64,000 nt of DNA from contig WQTS01000139.1 in assembly GCA_009786185.1 (NCBI GenBank), forward strand, positions 6,802-70,801. The letters run 5' to 3'. Position numbers and translations under genes: made by a program. Under the pieces are notes generated by a model. That model saw nothing but the letters and a program-made list of their open reading frames with translations, ran no database searches and was not told the DNA's origin. How positions within the stretch are numbered: the stretch's first letter is position 1; each line of letters opens with the position of its first letter. Of the stretch, positions 1,008 through 48,033 are shown piece after piece. Origin of the DNA: Bacteroidota bacterium. GTDB lineage: Bacteria > Bacteroidota > Bacteroidia > Bacteroidales > WCHB1-69.

Positions 1008-2012
1008 ATGAATTCTTTCGGCACATCATTCATCCTCAGCGATTACGGCGGCACCCACGATCCCCACATCGGCGGCACAATTACCGGCTGCCCTGCCGAC
1101 ATTGAAATTGATTTTGAATTTATACAGAGCGAACTAGCTCGCCGTGCACCTTCTCAACATCCAAATTCCACTCAACGCCGCGAACCGGATCACGTAGAGT
1201 TTTTATCCGGCATAGAAAACGGAAAAACCACAGGCGCTCCTATCGAATTTCGCATTCAAAACGAAGATGTGCAACCCAATAAAGCGATGTTGCACGTCAT
1301 AAAACCCTCACACGCTTCTTATACCTACAAGATAAAATACGGAATTACAGACAATTCAGGTACCGGAAGAGCCTCCGCGCGACAAACCGCGTGCAGAGTC
1401 GTGGGCGGCGCCATCGCCAAATTGTATTTAAAAAAATTTGGGATTGAAATTCATGCTTGGGAAAAGGGAAAAGGAAGAAGGGAGAAGGGAGAAAAATTCC
1501 TTCTCCTCTCTGAGGAGAAGGTGGCAGACGGCGACTTGTCGGCGTCTGACGGAAGAGGTGATGACGGCGATACCTTCGGCGCCTTAGTACATTGCACCAT
1601 CAAAAACCTCCCCGCCGGCTTAGGCGAGCCTGTGTACGATAAATTCGATGCACGTTTGGCATACGCCATGCTTTCCATTAATGCCTGCAAAGGTTTTGAA
1701 ATAGGCAAAGGTTTTGAAGCCGCCAATATGAAAGGCTCTGAATATAACGACATTCAAAATCCGGATTTTTCTTTTCAAAGTAATAACGATGGCGGTGTGC
1801 AAGCCGGAATTACTAATGGACAAGAAGTTTATTTTTCTGTGGCATTCAAACCTGTACCAACGTTGCAGATGAAGCAAAGTACAATTGATTTTGACGGAAA
1901 ATCCACCACTTATATTGGAAATAATCGTAATGATCGATGTGTGGCGCCAAGAGTTTTACCGGTGGTAGAAGCTATGGCAGCGTTAGTGGTGGCGGATTTT
2001 ATGTTGTCTTGA
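1008..2012 (+). CDS. aroC: Chorismate synthase (divergent, carries a repeat-derived internal segment)
   Basis: Motifs TGRASARQTACRVVGGAIA, LPAGLGEPVYDKFDARLAYAMLSINACKGFEIG and RNDRCVAPRVLPVVEAM match chorismate synthase signatures. The N-terminal GESHG-type motif is degenerate (GGTHDPH). Confidence 0.8.
   Translation: MNSFGTSFILSDYGGTHDPHIGGTITGCPADIEIDFEFIQSELARRAPSQHPNSTQRREPDHVEFLSGIENGKTTGAPIEFRIQNEDVQPNKAMLHVIKPSHASYTYKIKYGITDNSGTGRASARQTACRVVGGAIAKLYLKKFGIEIHAWEKGKGRREKGEKFLLLSEEKVADGDLSASDGRGDDGDTFGALVHCTIKNLPAGLGEPVYDKFDARLAYAMLSINACKGFEIGKGFEAANMKGSEYNDIQNPDFSFQSNNDGGVQAGITNGQEVYFSVAFKPVPTLQMKQSTIDFDGKSTTYIGNNRNDRCVAPRVLPVVEAMAALVVADFMLS
1459..1566. repeat. GA-rich tract plus 74-nt double-hairpin module, in frame inside aroC
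   Basis: nt 1491-1564 matches 48295-48368 at about 69/74 positions by eye. It contains the hairpins ccttctcc/ggagaagg and cagacg..cgtctg and is translated as EKFLLLSEEKVADGDLSASDGRGDD. Confidence 0.85.
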
Positions 2013-2089: not shown

Positions 2090-4582
2090 ATGGTAAAAAA
2101 TCTTCCCAAAACTGCAATCGTTTATCGAGATGTAAAATATTCATATACGCAACTTTTACAATACGCAGAAAAATATTGCCAAACATTTTTATTAAACGGA
2201 AAAACACCTGAAAAGGTGATGATTTTTGCGGATAACGCTCCCGAATACTTTTTTGCAACCTACGGAGCGCTTAAATGCGATGCAAGCGTTGTGCCGGTAG
2301 ATGTGCAGTCAACAGCAAAAGAGATTTCATATATCATGGAGGAGTGTCGTCCGGAAATTATCTTTGTTTCAGAATATTATAAAGAAAAAATTGCTGATAT
2401 TGCCAATGTCATTCCCGATTATTCATACACCATTTTTTCGCCTTCCGACATTGATATTTCAAATATTGAAGAGATGCCCATCAATGAGATTTCGATGAGA
2501 CAAGATGATCACGTGGCGGCAATTATTTACACTTCAGGAACAACCGGATCGCCTAAAGGCGTAATGCTTTCTTATAAGAATTTTTGGTACAATCTTGATG
2601 CGGTTGCTAATCAAATTCCTATCTTTAATTCCAACACTAATATAATGGTTTTGTTGCCGTTGCACCACTCATTTCCTTTTGCCGGCACGATGCTGGCGCC
2701 ACTTTATGCAGGAGGAACCTGCTGGATTACCGATGGTATGAAACCGGAATCTATTTTGCAAACTTTAAGCGATGGAAAAATAACGCTAATCATTGGAGTT
2801 CCAAGATTATATGAAACGTTAGCCAAAAGCATCATGTCGAAAATTAATGCAAGTTTTGCTGCAAAAACGCTTTACAAATTAGCATCGTTGTTAAAATCGC
2901 GCGCTTTTTCAAAAACCATTTTTAAAGCGGTGCATCAAAAGTTTGGCGGACATATTCAACATTTGGTTTCCGGCGGCGCAGCGCTACCGACAGATATTGC
3001 GAAAATATACAGAACCTTAGGATTTTATATTTTAGAAGGGTATGGCATGACCGAATGCGCCCCTATGATTACCTTTACGCGCCCCGGCGAATGGCGCTAC
3101 GGCTATGCCGGTCGTTTGTTGCCCGGCTGTGAAATGAAAATTGCAGAAAACGACGAAATTTTGGTAAGAGGAAACAACGTAATGCAAGGCTATTATAAAA
3201 AGCCTGAAGAAACGGCAGCTATTATTCGCGATGGTTGGTTGCACACGGGAGACACCGGAACCATTGATGAAATAGGCGTTAAAATTACAGGCAGAATTAA
3301 GGAAATAATTGTAACTTCTAACGGAAAAAACATCAATCCTGTAGAAATTGAATTTGAGTTGATGAAAAAAAGCGTTTTTATGAAAGAAATCGCCGCTTTT
3401 CTTCACAACGACCAACTACATTTACTCATTTATCCCGAAATGAGCGCCATACGCCTGCATTCCGATGGCGATTTTGATGAATTGTTGAAAAACGAAATTG
3501 CCGAATACAACAAAAATGCAATGCACTACAAGCGTATTCAGCAGTTTCATGTTGTTTCGGAAGAATTGCCCAAAACCAGATTGGGTAAAATTCAACGTTT
3601 TAAATTGGAAGAATTTATTCAAAAGAAAGAACAAAGACCTGATGAGGAGATAGGACATTTTTCATCTACATATAAAATCTTAAAACAGTTTATTGACAAA
3701 GAATTGAATGTAAAAGCGCATTCCGGAGATCATTTTGAAATAGATTTGGCAATGGATTCATTAAACAAACTTGCGTTGCTCGCTTTTATAGAAAATGCTT
3801 TCTCTATATCAATGAAAGCGCAAGAGTTAGATGAGTTGTGTTGCTTGGAAAAATTGAGTCAATCTATTGAAAAACAGGCACCGGAGTACAATGAAAATGA
3901 AATGTCGTGGAAAGATATTTTGCAAACGGAAAAACCCACGTTAAAATTGCCGCGTTCCGGTTTTATTCATTGGTTTACTGCTAATTTTATTAAGCTCACT
4001 TTTCATTTATATTTTTGTTTAAGAGGAAAAGGGAAAGAAAATATTCCCAACCAACCGGTGATTTTTGTGGCAAACCACCGGAGTGGATTAGATGGCGTTT
4101 TTGTAACGGCGCGTTTGCCGTGGAAAAGGGTAAAAAACACTTTCTTTTTTGCAAAAGACAAGCATTTTCAGTCGGTTTTTGCACGTTTTATGGCACCTCG
4201 AAACAATATTATTCTGATGAATATTAACACTAATCTTCGTGAATCCATTGTGCAGATGAGTGAAGTATTACGACAAGGAAAAAATGTGATCATTTTTCCG
4301 GAAGGAACGCGCGCTAAAGACAAGAAAATGAAAGATTTTAAGGATATGTTTGCTATTTTAAGCCAAGAATTGAATATCCCTATTGTTCCGGTTGCCATTT
4401 CAGGTTCCGAGCGCGCCGCATTTCGTTTTAAACGCATTCCGAGACCTTTTGTGCGCATATTTGTGGAATTTTTACCTCCAGTTTATCCCAATGCTAATGA
4501 AAATGTGCAAGAGTTGAAGGAAAAAGTGCAATTAATAATTGAAAGTGTATTAACACAAGATTCCTCGCTACGCTCGGAATAA
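2090..4582 (+). CDS. Tri-domain enzyme: AMP-dependent acyl ligase, carrier-protein-like domain and PlsC-type acyltransferase (Aas-like, reversed domain order)
   Basis: AMP-binding motifs YTSGTTGSPKGV and GWLHTGD. Phosphopantetheine-site-like DLAMDSLNKLALLAFIE. Acyltransferase motifs NHRSGLDG (HX4D) and FPEGTR. Confidence 0.75.
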   Translation: MVKNLPKTAIVYRDVKYSYTQLLQYAEKYCQTFLLNGKTPEKVMIFADNAPEYFFATYGALKCDASVVPVDVQSTAKEISYIMEECRPEIIFVSEYYKEKIADIANVIPDYSYTIFSPSDIDISNIEEMPINEISMRQDDHVAAIIYTSGTTGSPKGVMLSYKNFWYNLDAVANQIPIFNSNTNIMVLLPLHHSFPFAGTMLAPLYAGGTCWITDGMKPESILQTLSDGKITLIIGVPRLYETLAKSIMSKINASFAAKTLYKLASLLKSRAFSKTIFKAVHQKFGGHIQHLVSGGAALPTDIAKIYRTLGFYILEGYGMTECAPMITFTRPGEWRYGYAGRLLPGCEMKIAENDEILVRGNNVMQGYYKKPEETAAIIRDGWLHTGDTGTIDEIGVKITGRIKEIIVTSNGKNINPVEIEFELMKKSVFMKEIAAFLHNDQLHLLIYPEMSAIRLHSDGDFDELLKNEIAEYNKNAMHYKRIQQFHVVSEELPKTRLGKIQRFKLEEFIQKKEQRPDEEIGHFSSTYKILKQFIDKELNVKAHSGDHFEIDLAMDSLNKLALLAFIENAFSISMKAQELDELCCLEKLSQSIEKQAPEYNENEMSWKDILQTEKPTLKLPRSGFIHWFTANFIKLTFHLYFCLRGKGKENIPNQPVIFVANHRSGLDGVFVTARLPWKRVKNTFFFAKDKHFQSVFARFMAPRNNIILMNINTNLRESIVQMSEVLRQGKNVIIFPEGTRAKDKKMKDFKDMFAILSQELNIPIVPVAISGSERAAFRFKRIPRPFVRIFVEFLPPVYPNANENVQELKEKVQLIIESVLTQDSSLRSE

Positions 4583-4589
4583 CAAAAAA

Positions 4590-4640
4590 CCCCTTCAGAA
4601 TTTGAAGGGGTAGACGACAAAGCCGGACGGAATAGTTTAA
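4590..4640 (-). terminator. Hairpin ccccttcagaatttgaagggg followed by a T-run on the minus strand; also a copy of the CCCCTTCAAAATTTGAAGGGG repeat family
   Basis: 8-bp GC-rich stem at 4590-4597/4603-4610. The minus strand reads hairpin then TTTTTTG, directly downstream of the minus-strand gene ending at 4637. The tail gacggaatagttta matches the family consensus gacggggtagttta. Confidence 0.6.
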
Positions 4641-6148
4641 AACCTAACCCCCATTGTAAGCATAACACGGTGCGTGATAAATTTATTATTTACCGCATTT
4701 ACAAATGCAGGTTCATACAGCCAATATTTTTCTTTAGAAGTAGTAAGTGCATAAGCAAAATCGCTATAAAACACTCTTGTTCTAAAGCCTAAACCAGCTG
4801 ATGCATAATGTTTTGAACCGTCATTAATATTATCTTTGTACGGAGATGAAATATAGTTATATCCGGCTCTGATAGAAAATACTTGAGTTACACTAAATTC
4901 TGCGCCAATACGTGCGATGTGGCTAAGACCATACAAATTTTGGATGTTTTTATTTTCTGTATTGAAATTATAACGAGTCGAATACATCGTTGCCATGCTA
5001 TAATCGGTAATTTCATATTCAGCGCTGATAAAAGCACGTTGTTGAATGAAAAAAGCTACGTTTGCCATGGCGCGCAAAGGTGTAGTAAGCGAATAGTTAA
5101 ATCTATTTGCGTAACTGTCTTCTACACCGTAGTAATCTCTTACCCAGGATCCTGAAACCAAAACATCTTCCCAGGCGTGTGCTTCCATTCGTCTTTCAAA
5201 AAACTCTCTTACATTTCCATAATAAGTAGGAGTATGAAATGCCACACCTACACGTAAAAAATCAAAAGGTTGATAAATAGCACCCAATTTTAAATTAATA
5301 CCGGTAGCGCGAACGCTAAGCCTATCTGTAATGCTTATATTTTGAAAGTTGAAGGATTCAGCATTCTTATCATTTACTTCTTTATATGTCCTATTTTCCG
5401 TAAAATCAATGAATGGTACACCAAGAGTTGCGCCTATAAATACCATATCATCATAATTGGATCCGAATGAAAAGATCATTTCATCATTTCCTCCTGTTCG
5501 TATAACAGTAGAAGATTGGAACATATTAACACCTTCCATTGTAGGTCTATATGTAGTTGGAGTTATGTTGTCAATGAGAAAAGAGTTCCATCCAATCCAA
5601 GCCTCAGCTCCTCCCGGACCTTCAGGCCATCTACGCACATCGTCAGAGTTAAGACCAAGGTTAGTAGCTGTTATAGCAACCTCAGAACCTATAGTACTAC
5701 CTGCATTTCTTCCTTCAATAGAAAAAACGTTATTATAGTTTTTAACACGATTAAAGCCAAAGCCTATTTGAAATTTTTTCCATAATGTGCTTGAAACACC
5801 CGGCAATGCCCATACCATACCGGCGCTTCCTACATTATATTTCACCCCTTGTGCTAATGTGTTGGTTCCGTTGTAGTCGGAGGCATTTTTAAAAATAGAG
5901 AGTGTCATGGGGGTAAAAGTTACTTCATTTCTTTTGTACAACCCAATGGAGGCGGGGTTCGTGTTGAGCGCTGAAAACTCGGCGCCCACAGCGCCAAAGG
6001 CTCTTCCTGCACCCATAAAACGGGCAGTTCCTTGCCAGTCTAATTCTGAAAAGCGAAGCGCATCTATTTCATTTTGAGCGCCAACGTTGATTTGCATTAG
6101 TGAAATTAAACCAATGCAAAGGGCGAATTTTTTTAAAGTTTTTTTCAT
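4637..6148 (-). CDS. Outer-membrane beta-barrel protein, FadL/OmpP1-like (hydrophobic-compound channel family)
   Basis: Signal peptide. N-terminal DALRFSE..GTARFMGAGRAFGAVGAEFSALNTNPASIG motif typical of the FadL-like family. Alternating beta-strand pattern with C-terminal ...MGVRF. Confidence 0.55.
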   Translation of the reverse strand: MKKTLKKFALCIGLISLMQINVGAQNEIDALRFSELDWQGTARFMGAGRAFGAVGAEFSALNTNPASIGLYKRNEVTFTPMTLSIFKNASDYNGTNTLAQGVKYNVGSAGMVWALPGVSSTLWKKFQIGFGFNRVKNYNNVFSIEGRNAGSTIGSEVAITATNLGLNSDDVRRWPEGPGGAEAWIGWNSFLIDNITPTTYRPTMEGVNMFQSSTVIRTGGNDEMIFSFGSNYDDMVFIGATLGVPFIDFTENRTYKEVNDKNAESFNFQNISITDRLSVRATGINLKLGAIYQPFDFLRVGVAFHTPTYYGNVREFFERRMEAHAWEDVLVSGSWVRDYYGVEDSYANRFNYSLTTPLRAMANVAFFIQQRAFISAEYEITDYSMATMYSTRYNFNTENKNIQNLYGLSHIARIGAEFSVTQVFSIRAGYNYISSPYKDNINDGSKHYASAGLGFRTRVFYSDFAYALTTSKEKYWLYEPAFVNAVNNKFITHRVMLTMGVRF

Positions 6149-12135: not shown

Positions 12136-12275
12136 ATGACACAGACTGACACAAATTTTCTCTGTGGTTCTCTGTGTCTCCTCTGTGCAACTCTGTGTAT
12201 TTTTGAGGTTTTGTGCGTTTTTTTTATTTCACAGAGAACCACAGAGAAAGCACAGAGAGTTACAGAGGAAGTTTC
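12136..12275. repeat. CTCTGTG-word palindromic element
   Basis: Left arm ctctgtggttctctgtgtctcctctgtgcaactctgtg (about 12160-12200) is an imperfect reverse complement of the right arm cacagagaaccacagagaaagcacagagagttacagagg (about 12229-12270). A related copy lies at 29247-29336. Confidence 0.8.
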
Positions 12276-12624
12276 TGATTTAAAGAAAATTCTATTTCAT
12301 TATTATAGAATTCTATTTTAGTTGAGAATTATGAGGGTTTGACTAAAATGATATTTTTGCGTATATTTATGAGTTGGGCGCAATAGCAAGACGTGTAATT
12401 CATTGGAAAACTCCCACCGGTGGGACAATTTTTTTGAGCGCCTTTTGAAAAATTTTACCGTTTTGACTCTTGAAAAGAGTATTTGCGGAAAAATTACTCT
12501 TGAAGGGTGCGAAATAGGAAAAACCATTGAATTTCACACAAAAAACGCCACAAATGATAAGTAATAATGGATATTGAACATCGTTATTACACACTGTAAA
12601 ATATAAACTTAAATTACTTACATT

Positions 12625-13075: not shown

Positions 13076-13174
13076 TCTGCACGGATATTGCAGATAATTT
13101 TCCAATCAATTGATAATGCTCTAACGTATTGTGAAAACTTTTTCTACATTTGCACCGTCGAAAACTATATCTGT

Positions 13175-13362
13175 TTAAACAAAAACTATAACGACTTAGA
13201 TAATAATTACAGAGACTTAAATAAAGCTATCATAGTTTACACAATAACTACAAAAATTTAGATAATAGCTAAATTAACTTAGACAAAAACTAAAACATTT
13301 TAGATAAAAACTAAAATAATTTAGATAAAAACTACAACAATTTAAACATTAACTAAAATACT
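13175..13362. repeat. Tandem array, about 9 units of 21 bp (consensus TTAGATAAAAACTAAAACAAT)
   Basis: Successive units start at 13175, 13196, 13217, 13237, 13258, 13279, 13300, 13321 and 13342. The three central units are near-identical. Confidence 0.85.
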
Positions 13363-13439
13363 ATACTTAATTATATCAACAAGCAACATTAAAGACCGTA
13401 ATCAATAAAAAATATCTATAAATCCGAAAGTATTTAATT

Positions 13440-14093
13440 ATGGCAACTTCAAAAAAAAATGAAACACAAGACAAAAAGAAAGAAAAACTGATTATTTCAG
13501 AAACCGAATTGAAAAAATTACACGATGAAGTGTATAATTTAACGCAACAGTTTCCTCAGATTTCGCAAGATATTGCCCTGTCGGATGCTGAACGTAAACA
13601 GATGCGCGGCTCCGGTATTCGCCGGTACGGATTCATTGATAAAGTGAGCGATTTGGCTATGGAAAACCCAAAGTTTGTGCCACCATATATGGACGTAAAT
13701 GAATTAAAGAATCTGATACGTCAGATTGAAGTGTTGCGTAATACTGCGGCAAATCTTCAGCAAATGCTCCGAATGGTAAACGATGAATTGCTCACAGACG
13801 GCAATGAAGCATACCGCCTTGCACTCATTTACTACAACTCTGTGAGTAGCGCTTCACGTAGTCGGGTGCCCGGCGCTGAAGCTCTGTTTAATACGTTGAG
13901 ACCGTTCTTTAAATCATCTTCGTCCAAAAGCACGGGCGAGCTTACCGAAAAGAAAGTAATGCACGATGCAAAGAAACTTATCAAGGGTAAGGCTGACGGA
14001 AAAATTATCATCAAAAACGAAAAACCTGCCACTTCCGGAGGCATTCACGAAGTAATTGACGAAGTGCACAGCGGACACACAGCTTTTGAGTAG
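13440..14093 (+). CDS. Hypothetical protein (Lys/Glu-rich, predicted helical)
   Basis: Long ORF with a coding-like composition. I recognise no motif. Confidence 0.5.
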   Translation: MATSKKNETQDKKKEKLIISETELKKLHDEVYNLTQQFPQISQDIALSDAERKQMRGSGIRRYGFIDKVSDLAMENPKFVPPYMDVNELKNLIRQIEVLRNTAANLQQMLRMVNDELLTDGNEAYRLALIYYNSVSSASRSRVPGAEALFNTLRPFFKSSSSKSTGELTEKKVMHDAKKLIKGKADGKIIIKNEKPATSGGIHEVIDEVHSGHTAFE

Positions 14094-23866: not shown

Positions 23867-26554
23867 CTAGTTTTTTAAGCTTTTCAACAACAACTCCCCT
23901 GTCCCAATCCGATAGCCCTCTGATTTGAATACAAGTTTTCCTTCTTTATTCACAATAAACACCAACGGATATTCTTCTCTAAATTCCTGATTGGTGGTAT
24001 TTAATACATAATTCATAAACATTGATTCCTTATCAATTTCGAAAATAGAGTTTACAGGTAAATTCCAACGTTTCGGGTTGAAATCGGCGGTATTTTTTTC
24101 GCCGGGAATCATAAATAAAATATTGCCTCCCCATTTATCAAAATCATTTTTTAATGCTGCCATATCGTTGAATAAGTGACGAGTAGGTTCGCGCGCGGGA
24201 TCAATAAAGCAAAGTATCAATTCTTTTTCCTGCATTAAGTCAATGAGCGCTAATGTGTGTTCCTTGCCGGAATACGGTGAGTTCACCTCAATTTCACCGT
24301 AAGTTTTATTTTGAGGAATTAGTTTGCGTAACGTAACGGTTTTGCTCACTGTTTTTCCGGGTTCAATATTGAAAAACTCTAATTGTGAAAGTGTTTCGCC
24401 GTCGCTATAACGATTTCCGGTAGAAAGCATGTAATAACCGGGTTCCAATTCTAATGTGGCAGGGAAAGCTGCTACCCGTGGATCATCTTGGTAATTAAAG
24501 GTTACAAAATCGCCGTCTGCGAATTTTGCGATGGTGTAGTGGGTCCAGTATTCGGGGGTTTTGGCGTTTTTGGGGAGGGTTAGGGTTAAATTTCCATATA
24601 AACTACCCCGTGACACCCCTTCAAAATTTGAAGGGGATTTAGTGCCTGCTACTTTCTCCTTTCTCCCTTCTTCCTCTAAATCCACCACATTCCATTTTTT
24701 ATTTTGCCATACGAATATTTGATTAGTAGCAGCGTCTAAATATGCCGGAATATCTAAGGCTCGGCAGGCTGCCACGAAGAAGATGTTTCGCGAATGTTCG
24801 TCTGTGAGTCTTAAATCGTAAACACCTTTGGGTGAGATGGAGGCACGAAAATAATTGTCGTCGGAGCGCAAACGAATATTTGCATCCATCCAATCCAGAA
24901 GTTGTTGAGAAGTTGCATTCTCTCCTAATTCTGCTTCCAAGTTATCGAGTAAATAATGACGCCACATGCGCAATCCTTCATTAGAAATCCGTGCAGGAAT
25001 TATTCCTTTTACATAAACATCGAAAGGATATTTTTTTGAATCAAATAAAGTAGTATGTTCCTGCAAAATATCAGCAGGTGCATCGCGCAGGTCTTTGTCG
25101 GAAAGTGCGTTTAAAAATTCATACACATATAATCCGGCTCTTTTTTTGCCGTTTTGTTCCACAAACTTTTTAATTTCCGCATAATTTCCTTCGCTTTTTT
25201 GAATGAAATACCATACTTGTTCCGGCGTAAGATTTTCTGTTTTAATGATTTTTGCGTCCTCTTCATTCATAAAAGTAGTCAGATAGGCATTACGCACAGA
25301 ATCATTATATTGTAAACGTCTATTATTGATGTCGTTTTGTTCTTTCGTTGCCACTTTCTTTTTGGTTCCGGCATCGGGCGGGAAAATGTCCAACCACTCC
25401 ACGTATTCTTTACCCTGCTCATTTTCAAGCCTTATGGTTAATTCATCATTTTTACGCACATCGAACTTTTGGTAGCCGTATTTTCTGTTTTTTGTTACCC
25501 ACACGAGCAAATCGCCATAACCGGTACTAAGAGTAGCAACACCGTCTTTATCAGTATTAGTGGAAGCAAGGGAATAATATTCAGCAAAATTATAGAGTTT
25601 GAATTTTACGATGGCATCTTGCACGGGCATATTATTTTTATCTACCACAATGACCTTTATCTTTTTAGTATTCGTATAATTAGAAGTTAGATTTACCACA
25701 GAATATAATTCGGTTTCCAAAGTACGTTCTCCAAAATCTCCGCTTTTCCCAAACACGTTGGTGTGCACCATCATAGCGCGAGTAACGGGAAGGGCAAACC
25801 AACCCATATCTAATTCAGGATCAGGCTCACAAGCACCCAGAAAGTGCCAATTGCCGTTCACCCAAACTTCTACCCAAGCGTGATTGCTATTGGTGTGCGC
25901 CCAACGCGGTGTGTAAATCTGACGTGCCGGAATCCCCATGGCGCGCATGGCAGTAACCGTTAAGGTAGATTCTTCGCCACAACGCCCAAAGCCGGTACGA
26001 ATGGTAGCCAACGGCGACGAAGTTCTCCTATCCGAAGGACGATACGTTACTTTTTCGTGACACCAGTGGTTAATTTCCAATGCAGCATCGTACATGCTCA
26101 TGTCTCTAATTCTGTCTTTTAACTCATTGAAAATCACCATCCGTGCCGTATCCAAATCTTCATTATTTACACGATATACCAGCACAAAATGGCGAAATAT
26201 ATCTTCGGGAATAGCTGCGCCCCAAGGCATTTCATCTTGTGCTTTGAATGCGTAACGTACTTGATCCAAAAAGAATTTGCCGTCATAATCAGCTAAATCG
26301 CTCAACGGCATATACGCATACAAAAATTGCAATGCTTCTTTCTCTTTGTGTGTCAGAGTTTTGTCATTAAAAACAAAAAACAACTCCGTAGTGCGATCTC
26401 CCGCCAGCACTTTTCGTGCCTCAAAATCGGCTTGCACCATTAAGCGATAAGATTTGTCGGTTAGAAAATGAGGATCTTTACCACAAGAAGAAAAAAGAAA
26501 AACGGCGATTGTTATAAAAAGCAACCGGCTCAATATTAGATTGTTTTGCTTCAT
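23867..26554 (-). CDS. Transglutaminase-like domain lipoprotein with thioredoxin-like C-terminal region; carries an in-frame repeat copy
   Basis: Lipobox (FSSC). Transglutaminase core GFGRCGEESTLTVTAMRAMGIPARQIYTPRW...NHAWVEVWVNGNWHFLGACEP (Cys/His/Asp). Confidence 0.75.
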   Translation of the reverse strand: MKQNNLILSRLLFITIAVFLFSSCGKDPHFLTDKSYRLMVQADFEARKVLAGDRTTELFFVFNDKTLTHKEKEALQFLYAYMPLSDLADYDGKFFLDQVRYAFKAQDEMPWGAAIPEDIFRHFVLVYRVNNEDLDTARMVIFNELKDRIRDMSMYDAALEINHWCHEKVTYRPSDRRTSSPLATIRTGFGRCGEESTLTVTAMRAMGIPARQIYTPRWAHTNSNHAWVEVWVNGNWHFLGACEPDPELDMGWFALPVTRAMMVHTNVFGKSGDFGERTLETELYSVVNLTSNYTNTKKIKVIVVDKNNMPVQDAIVKFKLYNFAEYYSLASTNTDKDGVATLSTGYGDLLVWVTKNRKYGYQKFDVRKNDELTIRLENEQGKEYVEWLDIFPPDAGTKKKVATKEQNDINNRRLQYNDSVRNAYLTTFMNEEDAKIIKTENLTPEQVWYFIQKSEGNYAEIKKFVEQNGKKRAGLYVYEFLNALSDKDLRDAPADILQEHTTLFDSKKYPFDVYVKGIIPARISNEGLRMWRHYLLDNLEAELGENATSQQLLDWMDANIRLRSDDNYFRASISPKGVYDLRLTDEHSRNIFFVAACRALDIPAYLDAATNQIFVWQNKKWNVVDLEEEGRKEKVAGTKSPSNFEGVSRGSLYGNLTLTLPKNAKTPEYWTHYTIAKFADGDFVTFNYQDDPRVAAFPATLELEPGYYMLSTGNRYSDGETLSQLEFFNIEPGKTVSKTVTLRKLIPQNKTYGEIEVNSPYSGKEHTLALIDLMQEKELILCFIDPAREPTRHLFNDMAALKNDFDKWGGNILFMIPGEKNTADFNPKRWNLPVNSIFEIDKESMFMNYVLNTTNQEFREEYPLVFIVNKEGKLVFKSEGYRIGTGELLLKSLKN
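24596..24677 (-). repeat. Composite repeat (GA-rich tract, CCCCTTCAAAATTTGAAGGGG hairpin, GGGGTAGTTTATAT) translated inside the transglutaminase-like CDS
   Basis: Its reverse complement aligns with 39536-39640: shared aatccccttcaaattttgaaggggtg ... ggggtagtttatat. Read in frame as ...EEEGRKEKVAGTKSPSNFEGVSRGSLYG... Confidence 0.85.
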
Positions 26555-29156: not shown

Positions 29157-29246
29157 AGTATGTTTTTTTATTGTTTTAAAAAATGTTTGGCAAAAATAAT
29201 TTTTTTAGTGATACGCGGCAAGTGACAGGTAAGCGTATTATTTTTT

Positions 29247-29336
29247 TACACAGAGAGCCACAGAGAAGGCACAGAGAATCACGGAGGGTTTTCATCTCTG
29301 TGGTTCTCTGCGTCTTCTTCGTGTAACTCCGTGAAA
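29247..29336. repeat. CTCTGTG-word palindromic element (second copy, arms in opposite order)
   Basis: cacagagagccacagagaaggcacagagaatcacggagg ... ctctgtggttctctgcgtcttcttcgtgtaactccgtg. It lies in the divergent intergenic region between pta and the TPR gene. Confidence 0.8.
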
Positions 29337-29409
29337 TAATTATCACGACTATCCATCACTAAAATAATCTCTCCCCTTGCCACGTTATCTAAAATCGAAA
29401 CTTAAATTA

Positions 29410-34313: not shown

Positions 34314-37217
34314 ATGTTCACCCTCTATAAAGCCTCCGCCGGCTCCGGCAAAACCTCACGTTTAGTAGTAGAATATTTGGCGTTGTGCCTGCCACAGCCC
34401 GAAAAATTCAAACACGTACTTGCCATCACATTTACCAATAACGCTACCGCCGAAATGAAATCACGTATCGTGGATACGCTTTCTGAATTTGCTTTTGAAC
34501 CTGAAATTACTTCCAAGTTTCCCATTTATCATACATATAATCAAGTTATCGCAAAGATCGCATTGCATCTGCCTGAAAATGAGAAATTTCCTTACATAAA
34601 AAAACAATCGAAATTACTATTAGAGAAGATTTTATATGAATACGACCGCTTTTCCATCAGCACGATAGATAGTTTTTTTCAACGCATTTTGCGCGCTTTT
34701 GCTTTGGAGTTTGGGCTTTCTTCACAATTTAATTTAGAAATAGAATTGGACGATTTTTTCCGGGAAACGACCGCCGTTTTATTGCATCGCATTTCTAAAA
34801 ACAACGAACATCTTACCCAACGCGTGTTAGATTTAGTTGAAAATATGATGTTGGAAAAAGGGAAATGGAAAATTGAAAAAGAAATTCTCAAATTGTTGAA
34901 AATTAGTTTGGAAGAGGAGGTTTATCTTCCATTAAAAGAACTACAAGAATCTGAAAATACAGATTTTGAACAAGCGAAGAAAAAAATTAACCAAGAGATT
35001 TATCGTTTGAGAAATCAATTGAAAAACTTTACAACGAAAGAAGAGAAGAAGTCAGAGGCTTGCCTAATGCTCAAAGAACAATTGTTAGAGTATGAATTTT
35101 TTGGCAAAAATCTGTTTCAATTAGCATTGTTATTTGATTTAAAGATGATTATGGATGAAATTAAAATGCAAGACAATCTCTTTTATCTTTCGGAAACCAA
35201 TACCAAAATAAAGGAAAAATTGGGCAACGATGACGTTCCTTTTATCTACGAAAAAATTGGGAATCAATACTCTTATTTTTTTATTGATGAGTTTCAGGAC
35301 ACATCTAAGTTACAGTGGCAAAACATGATACCGCTACTAAGAGAAGCATTGGCAGGTACAAACAGATTTTACGAGCAGGGAAAAGTTTTTCTTTTCGGCG
35401 ATGTGAAACAGGCGATTTACCGTTTTCGCAACGGCGATGCAGATATTTTACAACAACTTTCTAACATTGAAGGTTACAAATCTGCCGTTTTGCCCTATTC
35501 AAAGCCGGAAGAAGATTATCGCGTGGAGTTATTGGATACTAATTTTCGCTCTTCAAAAAAAGTAATAGAATTTAATAATGCATTTTTTGATTTTTTAACT
35601 GCTGAAAACGGACCTTTTCACGAAGCGAAAGACTTTTACGAAGATGTGAAGCAAAAAACAAAACCCACCGCCGAAGAAGGCTTGGTAACGGTGCGTTTTC
35701 AAGAAGAGGAAGATAACCGCAAGTTTCAGGAATTTATGCCGGAACATGTCTTGGAAACTGTTTTAGACGCACTTCAACGCGGATACGCCTACAAAAATAT
35801 TGCCGTATTAGTGAGCAACAATGATTCGGCGAGCGCCATAGGCACATTTTTAATTGCCAACAACATCCCGATTATTTCTGCCGAATCGTTGCAACTGTCC
35901 GCATCCTCCGAAATTAATCTGTTGATCGCCACTTTGCAATATTTGGTTTCTGAAGAAGACAAATTGGCAAAATTGACAATGATTCATTATTTGGCGCAAC
36001 AAAATAACCTCCTATTAGAAAATTACATGCCTTGCATGCAAAATGAGCATGCCTTCCAACAGTTTTTAACAAATATTAATATCAACATTAGCAGAAAAAA
36101 ATTAAATTCACTTCCTTTATTCACCTTAATAGTCGAACTAAGTCGAATTATGTCGCTCTCCGTATGCAACCCATTTCTAATAAGATTATTAGACGAAACC
36201 GAAAAATTCGCCACAAAACGCAACGGTTCTACTCCCTTATTTTTAGAGTGGTGGGAAGAAAAAGGGCAAACCCTGGCGCTTTCTACTCCTCCGGGCATTG
36301 ATGCCGTAACAATTTCTACCATTCACAAATCCAAAGGATTAGAATATCCTGTTGTAATTTTTCCATTTAGCCGCTACAGCAATTTTAAAACCAAACCCGA
36401 TATATTTGTGAAAGATGAAAATCGCGTTACCGGTTTAGAATACGATTGGGTAACTTTATCCGATAAAAAAACGCCCGCGCGCTACCGGCACAAATACGCC
36501 GAAGAATCAAAGAAAACGCTGATTGATCAGTTAAACAAGTTGTATGTTGCCCACACCCGCGCGAGAACCGAGTTGCACATCATTACCGAAAAACCAAATG
36601 CGAGGGCGGGGAATTATAGTAAGTTTTTGGCAGCGTTCGGTGCGAGATATGAGGTTGGAGGTATGCGGTACGAGGTGTGCGGTGAGCGGTATGCGGTGGA
36701 CGGTGAATGGGAAATAAAAGGCAGAAAACAGAAAACAAAAAGCAATACACCACTTTGCGAACCATCTCTTCTGCCCTCTGCTCATCACCTCGCACCTCAC
36801 ACCTCATACCGCATACCGCATACCACCCAGCAACTCCGCGGCATCTTCATCCACAATTTCTTATCTTCTTTAACAACGTTTCCTCAAAACGAAAAAGAGA
36901 TAGACTGGGTGGTACAAAACGTAGAGGAAGCGTACAAAAAAGATCTTGCAAATATTTTTTATAAAATTCTGAATGACAAATCACTATCTCCATACTTTGT
37001 TTCGGAAGTAAAGGTGTTGAATGAAACTTCCATTTTGTTCCCAAACGGCAATTTATTGCGCCCCGACCGTGTAGTTTTTTTAGAAGACCGAACAGCGGTC
37101 ATTGACTATAAAACAGGCGAACCCAATGCTTCGCACAAAGAGCAGTTAGAACAATATTGTGAGGCTATTCGTGCGATGGGGTATGGAAATGTAGAGGGGC
37201 ATATTTTGTATGTATAA
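34314..37217 (+). CDS. UvrD-type helicase with C-terminal PD-(D/E)XK nuclease (AddA/RecB-like); carries an in-frame palindromic insertion
   Basis: Walker A ASAGSGKT, FIDEFQDTS, helicase motif VI-like LYVAHTRART, C-terminal nuclease motif RPDRVVF...IDYKTGE. Confidence 0.75.
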   Translation: MFTLYKASAGSGKTSRLVVEYLALCLPQPEKFKHVLAITFTNNATAEMKSRIVDTLSEFAFEPEITSKFPIYHTYNQVIAKIALHLPENEKFPYIKKQSKLLLEKILYEYDRFSISTIDSFFQRILRAFALEFGLSSQFNLEIELDDFFRETTAVLLHRISKNNEHLTQRVLDLVENMMLEKGKWKIEKEILKLLKISLEEEVYLPLKELQESENTDFEQAKKKINQEIYRLRNQLKNFTTKEEKKSEACLMLKEQLLEYEFFGKNLFQLALLFDLKMIMDEIKMQDNLFYLSETNTKIKEKLGNDDVPFIYEKIGNQYSYFFIDEFQDTSKLQWQNMIPLLREALAGTNRFYEQGKVFLFGDVKQAIYRFRNGDADILQQLSNIEGYKSAVLPYSKPEEDYRVELLDTNFRSSKKVIEFNNAFFDFLTAENGPFHEAKDFYEDVKQKTKPTAEEGLVTVRFQEEEDNRKFQEFMPEHVLETVLDALQRGYAYKNIAVLVSNNDSASAIGTFLIANNIPIISAESLQLSASSEINLLIATLQYLVSEEDKLAKLTMIHYLAQQNNLLLENYMPCMQNEHAFQQFLTNININISRKKLNSLPLFTLIVELSRIMSLSVCNPFLIRLLDETEKFATKRNGSTPLFLEWWEEKGQTLALSTPPGIDAVTISTIHKSKGLEYPVVIFPFSRYSNFKTKPDIFVKDENRVTGLEYDWVTLSDKKTPARYRHKYAEESKKTLIDQLNKLYVAHTRARTELHIITEKPNARAGNYSKFLAAFGARYEVGGMRYEVCGERYAVDGEWEIKGRKQKTKSNTPLCEPSLLPSAHHLAPHTSYRIPHTTQQLRGIFIHNFLSSLTTFPQNEKEIDWVVQNVEEAYKKDLANIFYKILNDKSLSPYFVSEVKVLNETSILFPNGNLLRPDRVVFLEDRTAVIDYKTGEPNASHKEQLEQYCEAIRAMGYGNVEGHILYV
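36636..36832. repeat. Palindromic element with GGTATGCGGT/GAGGTGTG-word arms, inside the helicase-nuclease CDS
   Basis: Left arm gaggtatgcggtacgaggtgtgcggtgagcggtatgcggtgg is an imperfect reverse complement of the right arm cacctcgcacctcacacctcataccgcataccgcataccaccc. They flank an A-rich core and are translated as ...GARYEVGGMRYEVCGERYAVDGEWEIKGRKQKTK...HLAPHTSYRIPHTT... Confidence 0.85.
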
Positions 37218-39042: not shown

Positions 39043-39537
39043 ATGTTTATGAGTAAAAAAAAGAACAACAAAGAGATCGAGCTTAATGAGCAAGTTGAAA
39101 TTCTAAATGCAGAAAAAGCAGAATTAAATGATCGCTTTTTGCGCCTTTATTCAGAATTTGAAAATTATAAAAAACGAACCAACAAGGAAAAATTAGACCT
39201 TATAGCCACCGCTTCAGAAAGAGTTATCTTAGGACTGCTCCCTATTGTGGATGATTACGAAAGAGCCATTAAACACAACCAAAACACAGAAGATATTGCC
39301 ACTTTAAAAGAAGGATTTACGCTTATTTACAGCAAATTATTAACATTATTAAAACGTTTTGAAGTAGAAGAAATCATCGCTTTAGGCGAAATCTTTGATA
39401 CCGATTTGCACGAAGCAGTTACGCATCTTCCCGCACAATGCGAAGAAGATAAAGGAAAAATAATGGACGTTACCGAAAAAGGATACAAGCTGAAAGACAA
39501 GGTGATACGGTTCTCGAAAGTGGTAGTGGCAAATTAG
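39043..39537 (+). CDS. grpE: Nucleotide exchange factor GrpE
   Basis: RLYSEFENYKKRTNKE ... GLLPIVDDYERA ... pattern, directly upstream of dnaJ. Confidence 0.9.
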   Translation: MFMSKKKNNKEIELNEQVEILNAEKAELNDRFLRLYSEFENYKKRTNKEKLDLIATASERVILGLLPIVDDYERAIKHNQNTEDIATLKEGFTLIYSKLLTLLKRFEVEEIIALGEIFDTDLHEAVTHLPAQCEEDKGKIMDVTEKGYKLKDKVIRFSKVVVAN

Positions 39538-39640
39538 GAGAAAGGGAGAAGGGAGAAAATGGGAGAAAGAAGGGAAACGGAAGAATAATCCCCTTCAAAT
39601 TTTGAAGGGGTGGCTCGCGAAGCGAGACGGGGTAGTTTAT
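39536..39640 (+). repeat. Composite repeat (GA-rich tract, CCCCTTCAAATTTTGAAGGGG hairpin, ctcgcgaagcgag hairpin, GGGGTAGTTTATAT) filling the grpE-dnaJ spacer
   Basis: Best-preserved copy of the family also seen at 4590-4640, 24596-24677 and 28041-28155. It ends 16 nt before the dnaJ ATG. Confidence 0.85.
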
Positions 39641-39655
39641 ATTAAAAAAAGTTAA

Positions 39656-45900: not shown

Positions 45901-46759
45901 GAATGCCGAATATGAATATTGGCTTGCTAAACTCCTTGCATTTGTAGGCGATAATGAAGAAGGGTATCATGAGGTTTTGCAAATGGTTTCTTATTACAGC
46001 GCATTGAAAGATAATTACTTTAATTCAATTATTGTGGCGGTGATAAATGAGAAGAAAGGAGAAAAGGAGGAAGGAGAAGGAAATTTATATGAAAAATTAA
46101 GATTTCTTTTCGGCTATCGCGGGCATTACACTGATTATCTTTCTATTACAGAAACTTTCTTAGCTGAAAATAATTTTGATGAAACATTAGCAACATTAGC
46201 GAAAATGTATAAACAATTTGAAGTTTCAAAAGAACAAATTTTTGAATTAAAGGGTTTGGAATCTTACGCTCTATGGTTACAACAATTAGAAAAAGAACAA
46301 AAGAGTATCTATAAGTTGTTTGAAAAAGAATTGAATTATTTGATAAATTATGTTGAAACCAACACCGGACGAGGCACAGTATTTGCAAAAAATATTTTGT
46401 GCGAATTATACAATATTTGTATTGAAAATGGAGAAGGCGCGAAAGCGGAAAGCGGTGATGATGAAATGATTGATCTGTGTAAATCTGTTACATCTGTGCC
46501 ATCTGTGTGCGAAAAAAACGCCCTCGAAAATATCACCATTCATCCCAATCCCACTACAGGAGAATTAACAATTTCGAGTACCGGACATCAGATATCGGAT
46601 ATCGAAATTTTTGATGTTTACGGAAGAAAAATATCATCTCACCATCTCTCCTCATCATCTCATCAAAAAATTGACATCTCGCATCTCAATTCCGGCATTT
46701 ATTTTATTAAAGTAATTACAAAACAAGGAAATATAGTTAAGAAAGTGGTGAAACAGTAA
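42848..46759 (+). CDS. C25 (gingipain)-like T9SS protein body with beta-helix-like region and type-A CTD
   Basis: Rest of the propeptide domain (FAFDSTAYNQ...IEIVVKPIEFCPVSRQLSV). C25-like core (ADYLIICAEPFY, VVLIGDV, GAVGYIGAFGG). CTD IHPNPTTGELTI..IFDVYGRK..SGIYFIKV. Only a TTG start, consistent with being the downstream part of a frameshifted gene. Confidence 0.65.
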   Translation: MLGDAGTQNYSHYNSEGMEYVKEFAFDSTAYNQFRLVEPVASVRSSGFFRSQGYIEIVVKPIEFCPVSRQLSVIDKVEINISFTNPQGEIRQNVGIFNGVASNTFINYEDDGLRAGANDKAFLQKNATPGKVKWINLSAPEQADTIVADYLIICAEPFYNSSDTSQVSRLARHRAYYNGFDVAVLNVENIMSDLLGFEYEGNPNDPDPNNWDIYKKEQRIRTCIRRIYEGQNAQNMGDGYLGYVVLIGDVLENNTLMPTSYDHDFPPFDGHIYRPSDYYFTCITKDSNDQYDNMGDLFIGRISVENHTHLFNMIEKTIYYESEFDPRNWRKAAGFSNRYAGYPSTHELFNSYVRDILDEIGWDYYFVNSWEQPGGLIRDSTIHYFNKGVAFVQYTGVASHSINWADLLHLDFEMRLNNDYQTPFVNTYAPNTGSFTNSYWTTLGCLAEFLTRYSPTKGAVGYIGAFGGWADSFFEIIDTTDLYYKDIYPYFLWKKKLPIAGELLLAAKTQCKSMPRWFTFEGNILEESGPHIFNLFGDPALNILAEGYEITRNATADCQTTLFGTVHIRNGATLTVLCDFYCAENANIVVHPGGKLIVNGGTLTNIPNGDMWQGITVLGDGTSNVATQGLVQIINGGKIENTITGIHAIGGGKIDANEAQFVNNSIAVQIDPVAATLLRTSASFTKTQFLLNDNYLGNFLDFETHLKLSDCKQVTLTACTLSNEATIKSYATGKNTGIWAFNAPLTVRENCPWWSPIHYPSGECMYPERSTFSGFNVAIFATNSGKTPFVSILYSEFSNNLYSVRLNTVDYTRLIKNDFQLTQHNSYGSYVINSTGYAIEENHFRDILPAPGKVTVGLTVSNSGSAENEVYKNTFSNLYVGQQFLCQNAALIGFDGLTFPGLQTLCNTFNNSQYRDILVGDFGFGSISSCRDNTIRSSQGSLQRPAGNSFSQTFATHFESQSSYSITYYYGIGSNENPNISGLITTSSTGRQSSCPSRIGAPHRGEGLEHALAQYNEWNAEYEYWLAKLLAFVGDNEEGYHEVLQMVSYYSALKDNYFNSIIVAVINEKKGEKEEGEGNLYEKLRFLFGYRGHYTDYLSITETFLAENNFDETLATLAKMYKQFEVSKEQIFELKGLESYALWLQQLEKEQKSIYKLFEKELNYLINYVETNTGRGTVFAKNILCELYNICIENGEGAKAESGDDEMIDLCKSVTSVPSVCEKNALENITIHPNPTTGELTISSTGHQISDIEIFDVYGRKISSHHLSSSSHQKIDISHLNSGIYFIKVITKQGNIVKKVVKQ
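46474..46511. repeat. TCTGTG-word repeat translated inside the C25-like CDS
   Basis: tctgtgtaaatctgttacatctgtgccatctgtgtgcg is related to 12133-12160. It is read as DLCKSVTSVPSVCEK. A GA-rich tract (gagaagaaaggagaaaaggaggaaggagaagg, about 46050-46082) lies about 400 nt upstream in the same ORF. Confidence 0.6.
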
Positions 46760-46868: not shown

Positions 46869-48002
46869 ATGGATAATTTCATTGTTTCCGCCCGTAAATA
46901 CCGCCCATCCACATTTAACACAGTGGTAGGGCAAGATTCTATCGTTTCTACTCTCAAAAACGCAATCAAAACACAACAAGTAGCACAAGCATTTCTGTTT
47001 TGCGGTCCGCGGGGAGTGGGCAAAACCACCTGCGCCCGTATATTTGCAAAAGCACTTAACTGCCACCATCTTACTCCGGATTTTGAACCTTGCAACGAGT
47101 GTGAATCCTGCAAATCGTTCAACGCATCGGCATCTTTCAATGTGTATGAATTGGATGCCGCTTCCAATAATTCCGTAGAAGATATTCGTTCGTTAGTAGA
47201 ACAGGTGCGTATCAGTCCGCAGGGAGCCAAATTTAAAGTGTATATCATTGATGAGGTTCACATGCTTTCTAATCAAGCATTTAATGCTTTTTTAAAAACG
47301 CTGGAAGAACCTCCTGCGTATGCTAAATTTATCTTGGCAACTACGGAAAAACATAAAATTATTCCCACTATTTTATCACGTTGTCAAGTATATGATTTTA
47401 AGCGCATTGGAGATAACGACATTATGAAGCATTTGGCTTACGTAGCAAGCAATGAAGCCGTGCAAGCCGAAGAAGAAGCATTGCGCGTGGTAGCCTCAAA
47501 AGCCGACGGCGCGCTAAGGGATGCACTCTCCATTTTCGACCAGTTGGTAAGCTTCTCCGGAAAAAATATTACCTACCAAACCACCATTCAACATCTGAAT
47601 GTGTTAGATGTAGATAACTATTTTAAAATGACCGACTTTTTATTTAGCGAAGATAGCTCCGATGCACTTTTACTTTTTGATGAAATTTTAAACCGCGGTT
47701 TCGACGGACAACACTTTATTTCCGGATTGGCCGCACATTTTCGCCAGTTGTTAATGGCGCAAAACCCTGCTACCATCAAATTAATGGAGGTCTCCGATAC
47801 CGTAAAACAACGTTTTTTCGAACAAGCCAAAAAAGCCGATAAACAGTTGTTACTCCGTGGATTAGAATTAGCCAACCAGTGCGATTTTAATTACAAACTA
47901 TCTCAAAACAAACGTCTTAGCGTAGAAATCTGTTTGATGCAAATCAATGGAAATTACGTATATAAGCTAAACGCAGGCGTCAGGCAATCACGGGAGAAAT
48001 AG
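46869..48002 (+). CDS. dnaX: DNA polymerase III subunit gamma/tau, N-terminal (domains I-III, gamma-like) ORF
   Basis: AAA+ clamp-loader motifs FLFCGPRGVGKTT, Zn module CHHLTPDFEPCNECESC, YIIDEVHML, SRC motif (ILSRCQVYDF). Confidence 0.9.
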   Translation: MDNFIVSARKYRPSTFNTVVGQDSIVSTLKNAIKTQQVAQAFLFCGPRGVGKTTCARIFAKALNCHHLTPDFEPCNECESCKSFNASASFNVYELDAASNNSVEDIRSLVEQVRISPQGAKFKVYIIDEVHMLSNQAFNAFLKTLEEPPAYAKFILATTEKHKIIPTILSRCQVYDFKRIGDNDIMKHLAYVASNEAVQAEEEALRVVASKADGALRDALSIFDQLVSFSGKNITYQTTIQHLNVLDVDNYFKMTDFLFSEDSSDALLLFDEILNRGFDGQHFISGLAAHFRQLLMAQNPATIKLMEVSDTVKQRFFEQAKKADKQLLLRGLELANQCDFNYKLSQNKRLSVEICLMQINGNYVYKLNAGVRQSREK

Positions 48003-48033
48003 TGTAGAGCCCTCGCCCACCGGAGTAGGCAAT

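Follow-up and report, generated by a model that had tools for sequence, protein, structure and literature searches.

In-frame palindromic repeats in essential genes are best known from Rickettsia, and they are usually tied to obligate intracellular genomes and relaxed selection. The present analysis concerns repeats that have colonised coding regions in frame and at high density in a gut Bacteroidota, in genes under strong purifying selection. Its subject is a 74-nt module of two adjacent hairpins, found twice in a 64,000-nt stretch of DNA from Bacteroidota bacterium (assembly GCA_009786185.1, contig WQTS01000139.1, positions 6,802 to 70,801 of the forward strand; hereafter the window), once within aroC, the gene for chorismate synthase, and once in an open reading frame (ORF) downstream of dnaX. 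The module, called type A, belongs to a family of short palindromic repeats that is specific to this lineage; a second member, with the same layout and completely different stems, is called type B.

Rickettsia palindromic elements (RPEs) lying in frame within ORFs were reported by Ogata et al. (2000), as recounted in PMC10969869 and PMC3733652. As far as these accounts describe them, RPEs and the module share several properties: both are short dispersed palindromic repeats, lie in frame in unrelated functional housekeeping genes, encode a conserved peptide in a constant frame, and occupy sites that the protein fold tolerates, for the module as predicted. According to the same accounts, the hosts differ, an obligate intracellular alphaproteobacterium there and a gut Bacteroidota here, and RPE-1 is about 150 bp long whereas the core of the present module is about 70 nt. 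The element described here is, in addition, a composite of a tract of tandem 7-8-nt units and two hairpins, forms mosaics with other hairpin types, and has occupied one and the same loop repeatedly. The likeness is one of behaviour, judged by description, and membership in an RPE family is not claimed.

The CGTC- and GTAG-tagged superfamilies of repetitive extragenic palindromic sequences (REPs) include RPE-4 and RPE-6 of R. conorii (Di Nocera et al., 2013; PMC3733652). CGTC REPs have been reported in Bacteroidetes, lie within ORFs in a number of phyla (examples are O. terrae and Thauera), have no dedicated transposase, and are described as a CGTC head, an 8-9-bp stem starting with AT, a 4-5-nt loop and a CCA tail (PMC3733652). 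On the reverse strand, hairpin 2 of type A reads CCGTC, then stem-loop-stem, then GCCACC, which matches the CGTC head and may correspond to the CCA tail, and another repeat found in the same host loops (..ATTGCGGGTCAAGCCCGCAATGACG.., coding for GIAGQARNDG) fits the published description. Unlike CGTC REPs, type A has a hairpin 2 stem of 6-11 bp with a loop of 2-4 nt, frequently shows two or three unpaired bases from CGTC to the stem, comes together with another hairpin and a tandem tract, and is almost wholly intragenic, whereas REPs are mostly intergenic. Since stem and loop lengths fit only partly and the comparison was made with the published description rather than by consensus alignment, this is a resemblance to CGTC REPs and not membership. 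Bacterial MITEs (transposable elements of the miniature inverted-repeat type) with ORFs that make in-frame fusions, such as ERIC, BOX and others (PMC10969869), are likewise small non-autonomous repeats open to in-frame read-through, but the module is much shorter and has no detectable terminal inverted repeats or target-site duplications.

It is thus established that palindromic repeats lie in frame in Rickettsia genes and that REPs lie inside ORFs of several phyla (PMC10969869; PMC3733652). What is to some degree unusual here is the near-exclusively intragenic location of type A, its single frame, its mosaic architecture and the repeated occupation of one loop. In the searchable literature, which is incomplete, neither the family nor behaviour of this kind was found described for Lentimicrobiaceae or for Bacteroidota of termite guts.

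Two Module Copies in the Window

The two copies, their upstream tracts and their host genes are as follows.

1008 to 2012, + strand: aroC, chorismate synthase of a short subfamily, 334 aa, full-length match to PF01264 (E 6.8e-105)
1459 to 1495, + strand: purine-rich tract of GGGAAAAG- and GGGAGAAG-type units, encoding EKGKGRREKGE, directly 5' of the module
1491 to 1564, + strand: type A double-hairpin module, aroC copy, encoding KFLLLSEEKVADGDLSASDGRGD; covariance model score 98.6 bits
48034 to 48825, + strand: host ORF of the second copy, 263 aa, frame open from 47971 and +1 relative to dnaX; low-complexity linker and conserved C-terminal domain
48227 to 48300, + strand: purine-rich tract, encoding KEKEGERKDEREKEKEEARRETEE, 5' of the module
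48295 to 48368, + strand: type A module, second copy, encoding KFLLLSEEKVADDGLPAADGRGD; covariance model score 97.8 bits

An earlier sequence-only reading of the window had put the identity of the 74-nt pair at about 93% by eye, and computed comparison gives 69 of 74 bases between 1491-1564 and 48295-48368; with the upstream tract included, 90 of 105 are identical (1460-1564 versus 48264-48368). A 37-nt core allowed up to three mismatches matches the window at exactly these two places and nowhere in 100 dinucleotide shuffles. That both copies are translated in the same frame, each behind a GA-rich tract, is borne out in both ORFs: one module frame gives EKFLLLSEEKVADGDLSASDGRGDD in aroC and EKFLLLSEEKVADDGLPAADGRGDE in the ORF downstream of dnaX, and the tract 5' of each copy encodes a peptide rich in E, K, G and R. 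The tract on the aroC side shows partial complementarity to hairpin 1's left arm. The two adjacent hairpins that the same reading had seen are both present in the aroC copy (hairpin 1, arms 1499-1508 and 1512-1521, 10 bp, 100% complementary; hairpin 2, arms 1525-1535 and 1538-1548, 11 nt, 91% complementary), while the second copy retains hairpin 1 (48303-48311 and 48317-48325, 9 bp) and has an eroded hairpin 2. When single sequences are folded, the advantage over shuffles is only weak for the + strand (z -1.7 and -0.6) and larger for the - strand (z -3.6 and -2.0). Because these z-scores are modest, the hairpins are argued from the family alignment.

At alignment column 56 the two window copies both have a G, and both carry a GATGA tail, neither of which occurs in any of the 35 other aligned copies; these two derived states, exclusive to the pair, point to exchange between copies inside the window genome. 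The window derives from JGI metagenome 3300002127, and NCBI annotates the protein as one from a Bacteroidetes MAG. The contig is metagenome-derived, and the sequence-only reading had considered that the pair might arise from an assembly chimera. The identical AroC protein occurs, however, on five contigs from two samples, and orthologous aroC and dnaX-side loci in independent assemblies carry the module at the same positions with their ORFs in frame. An artefact or chimera is therefore rejected and retains practically no probability.

Dispersal and Reading Frame of Type A Modules

An exact 19-mer from the conserved centre of the module was searched in one genome each for 185,579 species and gave nine matches. 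Four are true copies, all in a single metagenome-assembled genome, the Lentimicrobiaceae isolate Emb289P3bin108, where Emb289 stands for Embiratermes neotenicus, a higher termite that feeds on humus (PMC7024585); the remaining five have unrelated flanks and are chance matches. In JGI metagenome contigs the same word was found at 57 loci, representing about 42 distinct true copies and, after grouping of orthologous positions, about 24 independent sites. The sequence-only reading had allowed for two outcomes contrary to a mobile repeat, namely a peptide shared by unrelated genomes and a module absent elsewhere; instead, true copies of the 19-mer are absent from unrelated taxa among these species genomes, and the module is multi-copy.

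Thirty-seven type A copies were aligned as the basis for structure, conservation and a covariance model, with the limit that the search word fixes hairpin 1 on its right arm and hairpin 2 in part. Neither the window nor 341 kb of related loci (numbered with the prefix L) yielded additional type A copies with this model; its extra matches were one variant (L012) and a weak match that is in fact a type B module. Most family members are preceded by tracts of 7-8-nt purine-rich tandem units, which differ from one another, and the flanking tracts are free of stop codons in all frames. Viral contigs gave two matches to the type A word, both by chance and without flanking similarity, and none to type B, so that there is no sign of phage carriage in the viral contigs searched. 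A search with a tandem 46-aa consensus peptide passed only 11 candidates through its word prefilter and is uninformative.

The frame in which the module is read is nearly constant. Thirty-seven of the 42 copies lie inside long ORFs in one frame, giving ..KFLLLxEEKVADGGxPPDDGRG.., and this holds for 21 of about 24 independent sites; a genome-wide count of copies and frames had been proposed on the sequence alone, and these figures, which come from metagenome contigs, bear on it. About 23 of 24 type A sites are genic. Five of the element's six frames are open, so stop codons do not force the bias. The hosts identified by Pfam, which represent at least nine different families, are listed here; AroC and the ORF that follows dnaX are further hosts, from the window.

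FtsK, in the linker between the 4TM and alpha domains
Mur ligase
Trigger factor, in the C-terminal tail
Double ABC ATPase, between the two ATPase domains
EPSP synthase
UDP-GlcNAc 2-epimerase
LpxK
HemN-like radical-SAM protein
DUF2520 protein

Most insertions lie between Pfam domains or at their edges. Four copies depart from the common pattern. Three antisense copies are found at the extreme N-termini of ORFs of 308-392 codons (L029:877-1812, + strand; L047:301-1224, - strand; L049:243-1418, - strand), where translation of the antisense purine tract gives a hydrophobic segment that resembles a signal peptide and precedes SASAQ or GFAQ; these N-termini could be repeat-derived signal sequences or the result of mis-called start codons. 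The fourth and sole stop-bearing copy (L067), with TGA in the loop of hairpin 1, lies outside any ORF, and variants with a 2-nt loop in hairpin 1 have a shifted upstream frame reading IPSPLEEKV. Excision of the module or its bypassing by ribosomes is unlikely, since every intragenic copy keeps its ORF open and in frame despite variable tract lengths.

Presence of the module differs between orthologues, as a gene for a C25 peptidase illustrates.

46049 to 46096, + strand: hairpin-less remnant, tract plus tail EKKGEKEEGEGNLYEK, in an ORF with C25-peptidase and type IX secretion system (T9SS) matches in Pfam

The L022 orthologue has a full type A module at the equivalent site, and among C25-peptidase orthologues the module is found at two different sites or not at all. 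Such presence/absence differences between orthologues, the two C25-peptidase sites among them, show past mobility of the family on the timescale of species divergence.

Constraint on the Nucleic Acid

Hairpin 1 (10 bp) is paired in 100% of the 37 aligned copies and hairpin 2 in 84% of the alignment cells. The loop of hairpin 1 varies freely by comparison (TCT, TTT, AAA, ACA, AGT, TGT, TGA or two bases), and its codon gives S, F, K, T, C or R. Hairpin 2 covaries: one pair is G-C in 26 copies and A-U in seven, and another occurs as G-C, G-U and U-A. These compensatory changes alter the peptide, G to D and P to S, turning Gly-Pro into Asp-Ser. Outside the search word, variability is 0.035 at third codon positions versus 0.09 at positions 1 and 2. 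Third positions are thus the least variable, which is the opposite of what is expected under selection on the peptide.

These observations bear on the idea that the module is a functional peptide, a short linear motif or linker under protein-level selection that spread between genes by recombination. The constancy of FLLLxEEKVADGGxPPDDGRG, read in a single frame at most sites, is striking and speaks for it. The distribution of variability over codon positions and the residue changes caused by compensatory stem substitutions speak against it, as do the free loop codon of hairpin 1, the variants in which a 2-nt loop shifts the upstream frame, the antisense copies that use other frames, and the orthologues that have unrelated repeat peptides or nothing in its place. 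We regard this explanation as improbable; as judged from the alignment, the constraint acts on the nucleic acid rather than on the peptide.

Mean pairwise identity of the module core, without the search word, is 88.5%, whereas the aroC host genes differ at 31-75% of synonymous sites. It follows that the modules are young, homogenised, or selected as DNA or RNA.

The sequences flanking the stem of hairpin 2 are conserved to different degrees. GACGG (CCGTC on the reverse strand), 3' of hairpin 2, is invariant or nearly so in the 37 type A copies, and ACGG occurs in 11 of 14 type B copies. GGTGGC (GCCACC on the reverse strand), 5' of hairpin 2 in type A, lies inside the search word and is invariant by construction; the tail GGTGG of type B occurs in about five of the 14 aligned copies, most others having GTGT or GTGC (CAC on the reverse strand). 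The stem of hairpin 2 has 6-7 bp in a GGAT subfamily, in which two or three unpaired bases lie between CGTC and the stem, versus 10-11 bp in a GTCT subfamily.

The AroC Loop as an Insertion Site

The AroC protein of the window matches PF01264 over profile positions 3-327 of 327, and its matches in the PDB reach E 1e-73. In an AlphaFold2 (AF2) model with a mean predicted local distance difference test score (pLDDT) of 72, the best Foldseek matches are all chorismate synthases, with query TM-scores of 0.51-0.71. The segment of residues 155-186, between two strands, lacks secondary structure, with pLDDT below 50. To check whether this segment maps to a surface loop had been suggested from the sequence; its placement in an unstructured loop holds in the predicted model, and solvent exposure goes beyond what low pLDDT proves. 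Predicted tryptic peptides of the module segment include FLLLSEEK and VADGDLSASDGR.

In 36 aligned orthologues, which are 66-89% identical to the window protein, GIEIxA and GDTFGA are separated by 8 to about 75 residues, and this stretch contains nothing recognisable, (GCAGAAT)3, type A (once duplicated), type B, the CGTC REP or low-complexity repeats. The closest syntenic relative (88% identity) has type B exactly at the window's type A site, and the canonical-looking CGTC REP is read in two frames, as IAGQARNDG or LRVKPAMT. In one aroC orthologue without a hairpin module (L068:744-812), the (GCAGAAT)x3 heptamer fills the loop (AWEDAECRMQNADGDTFG), from which it follows that the loop gathers short tandem repeats even without hairpins.

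It had been supposed from the sequence that the repeat replaced a native segment of AroC. The comparison speaks for insertion instead. Repeat-free orthologues have only 8-12 residues at the module position; the no-insert orthologue has 8 residues versus 40 in P. aeruginosa AroC (5z9a) and 44 in yeast AroC (1r52), and the window protein has 32 unaligned residues versus 55 in yeast. Since repeat-free members are also short, the canonical segment of about 40 residues was lost in the ancestor of the short subfamily and the repeat was inserted later. The module is thus an insertion into an already short, hypervariable loop that is predicted to be disordered. Members of the short subfamily without inserts have about 310-316 aa.

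The other half of the same suspicion was that aroC is a decaying pseudogene with junk in place of the native segment. The unusual motifs on which it drew are present as described, GGTHD instead of GESHG and RNDRC instead of RHDPC, and the canonical segment is indeed missing. Throughout the short subfamily, however, which includes large clusters from complete genomes, the motifs GGTHD and RNDxC show no or almost no variation, and the deletion is likewise subfamily-wide. Outside the loop, the ratio of nonsynonymous to synonymous divergence (dN/dS) is 0.04-0.13 in all 27 pairs, of 28, with estimable dS (dS 0.4-2), and 0.04-0.07 for the window aroC against seven orthologues. With the ORF intact, the Pfam match full-length and the fold kept, decay is very improbable: judging from substitution patterns, aroC is under strong purifying selection and intact, and its enzyme activity is predicted. 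The other proposal made from the sequence, that AroC tolerates a repeat-encoded loop as Rickettsia proteins tolerate RPEs, is supported, the repeat being palindromic, dispersed and read in frame in host ORFs that are intact and match Pfam in full.

Upstream of aroC, at 1-934 on the - strand, lies a gene for a fused Mur ligase and MurB-like protein (Mur_ligase_M, FAD_binding_4 and MurB_C; about 750 aa), which is syntenic in a related contig (L001/L069).

The ORF Downstream of dnaX

The second copy had been assigned to the linker of dnaX. It does lie in a low-complexity linker, but that linker belongs to the conserved ORF 48034-48825, a separate ORF in the +1 frame downstream of and outside the following one.

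46869 to 48002, + strand: N-terminal dnaX ORF, 377 aa, with clamp-loader ATPase domains (PF13177, PF22608, PF12169), ending in ...VRQSREK*

The split recurs in five orthologous loci from independent assemblies (L003, L036, L040, L043 and L066), and a 20-nt sequence just upstream of the dnaX stop codon, GTCAGGCAATCACGGGAGAA, is identical in these and in the window. Homologues of the C-terminal domain (61 close and 96 representative) are all short stand-alone ORFs of 65-337 aa, and none of them is fused to a clamp-loader ATPase. Two-ORF dnaX genes that are recoded to make tau have poly-A slippery runs (PMC3711429), and no poly-A run is present at the window dnaX junction. The junction, at 47971-48034, is either a candidate +1 recoding site making tau or the border between two separate genes. 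Orthologues stack up to three different repeat types in the dnaX-side linker.

Type B Modules and a Possible RNA Function

Type B resembles type A in layout: a tract is followed by CCCCTTCAAA/TTTGAAGGGG, GTG, the second hairpin and then ACGGGGTAGTTTATAT, and the module ends in GGGGTAG. About 15 copies were found, ten in long ORFs and five intergenic. Nine of the ten ORF-borne copies are read in one frame (SPSNFEGV..RGSLY) and one in another; the intergenic copies lie just 3' of genes. Hairpin 2 shows compensatory double changes at four of its six pairs in 14 aligned copies, with a covariation score reached by none of 500 shuffles. The hairpin-less remnant at 46049-46096 in the C25-peptidase ORF is counted as one of four type B occurrences in the window; the three others are modules.

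4578 to 4644, + strand: type B module (ccccttcagaatttgaagggg, hairpin 2, ..aatagttta), intergenic between convergent genes; weak cmsearch match (20.7 bits)
24590 to 24672, - strand: type B module with purine-rich tract, in frame as ..EEEGRKEKVAGTKSPSNFEGVSRGSLYG.. in the transglutaminase-like ORF 23867-26554 (PF01841)
39526 to 39643, + strand: type B module with purine-rich tract, intergenic in the grpE-dnaJ spacer, flanked by GrpE and DnaJ

The first of these is part of the 14-copy alignment and has a copy at the orthologous position in L069. Directly before it, at 4556-4582 on the + strand, the last residues (..DSSLRSE*) of an 830-aa AMP-binding/acyltransferase ORF come from a small hairpin repeat, gattcctcgctacgctcggaat; a near-identical unit is found in L013, downstream of trigger factor.

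The conserved and covarying stems of both types raise the possibility that the hairpins have an RNA function in mRNAs, such as slowing of ribosomes at domain boundaries, transcript stability or processing, the peptide being a by-product. This is the main rival to an origin as selfish or neutral repeats. Many copies do lie at domain junctions, the intergenic type B copies just 3' of genes recall REPs, and among pairs other than Watson-Crick ones G.U predominates over A.C on the sense strand (12 versus two). The wobble count was obtained from few free positions, however, because the search word fixes parts of the stems, and a transition bias could explain it. Orthologues lack the module at the same sites, single-sequence folding on the + strand is not better than that of shuffles, and no Rfam family was matched: a tRNA and sub-threshold noise were all that scans yielded, whether of the window as a whole at gathering thresholds or of both module regions at E<=1. 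An RNA function as the primary explanation is therefore unlikely, but it is compatible with an origin as selfish or neutral repeats, the two being not mutually exclusive.

Proposed Origin and Maintenance

The explanation that we prefer, at a probability of about 0.75, is that the family consists of REP/RPE-like selfish or neutral palindromic repeats that are copied genome-wide and kept in coding regions where the product tolerates them. In Lentimicrobiaceae-like Bacteroidota of higher-termite guts, a repeat of two adjacent hairpins, usually behind a purine tract of 7-8-nt tandem units, would have been copied to many unrelated places, with the hairpins maintained at the level of the nucleic acid. 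Copying probably proceeded by transposition, through some enzyme, and/or by gene conversion between copies, and the tandem tracts plausibly arose by replication slippage beside the hairpins. Insertions into coding regions would survive only where about 25-35 extra hydrophilic, disordered residues are tolerated, as in surface loops and inter-domain linkers, and would nearly always be read in the frame that gives an acidic, flexible peptide; the segment is presumably translated and harmless. In AroC, the module would sit in the loop left by the ancient deletion, a permissive site that takes up different repeat types by lineage, and turnover together with homogenisation may go on at such sites.

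Several points weigh against this explanation. First, the flanks of the 37 aligned copies gave no convincing or consistent target-site duplication and, apart from the internal hairpins, no terminal inverted repeat, and the 22 window ORFs that were compared with Pfam, of 45 with at least 120 aa, include no transposase. Second, the strict use of a single frame would have to be explained by selection after insertion only. Third, classical REPs lie mostly between genes, whereas type A lies almost entirely within them (about 23 of 24 sites). Fourth, the sense-strand excess of G.U weakly hints at a role at the RNA level, which a purely selfish-DNA model does not need. Finally, the presence of the segment in the mature protein is predicted from the reading frame, and the AroC model is of moderate confidence, its low pLDDT being no proof of surface exposure.

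A more specialised nature is doubtful but conceivable: the module could be a structure-constrained cassette for coding regions, with sense-strand hairpins at domain boundaries and loops, an enforced frame and homogenisation by gene conversion, which either has a role in mRNA or translation (programmed pausing, transcript stabilisation) or is a mobile element with frame-aware insertion.

Whatever the origin, the AroC loop is a natural experiment, in that close relatives have nothing, a tandem heptamer or at least four repeat types at one place. It offers material for studying how such elements move, why a single frame is used, and how disordered loops and linkers originate. The family is also a warning for annotation, as repeat-derived peptides inflate spurious protein similarities and spurious 'hypothetical' ORFs in metagenomes.

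Other Repeats in the Window

Further repeats were observed in the window. At 36641-36829 on the + strand, in frame within a UvrD-like helicase ORF (34314-37217), lies a long imperfect inverted repeat, whose two 45-nt arms are 73-82% complementary with 99 nt between them and consist of GGTATGCGGT- and ACCGCATACC-type low-complexity units; units like these flank the dnaX-side type A module at 48140-48175 and 48427-48476. Two intergenic long hairpins, at 12150-12277, just downstream of ruvC, and at 29243-29339, consist of CACAGAGA-type 8-nt units with arms of 44-48 nt, one of them with a perfect stretch of 20 nt. Seven tandem AT-rich units of about 21 nt (..TTTAGATAAAAACTAAAA..) occupy 13168-13370, upstream of ORF 13440-14093, which has no Pfam match, and a related eighth copy is found at 60021.

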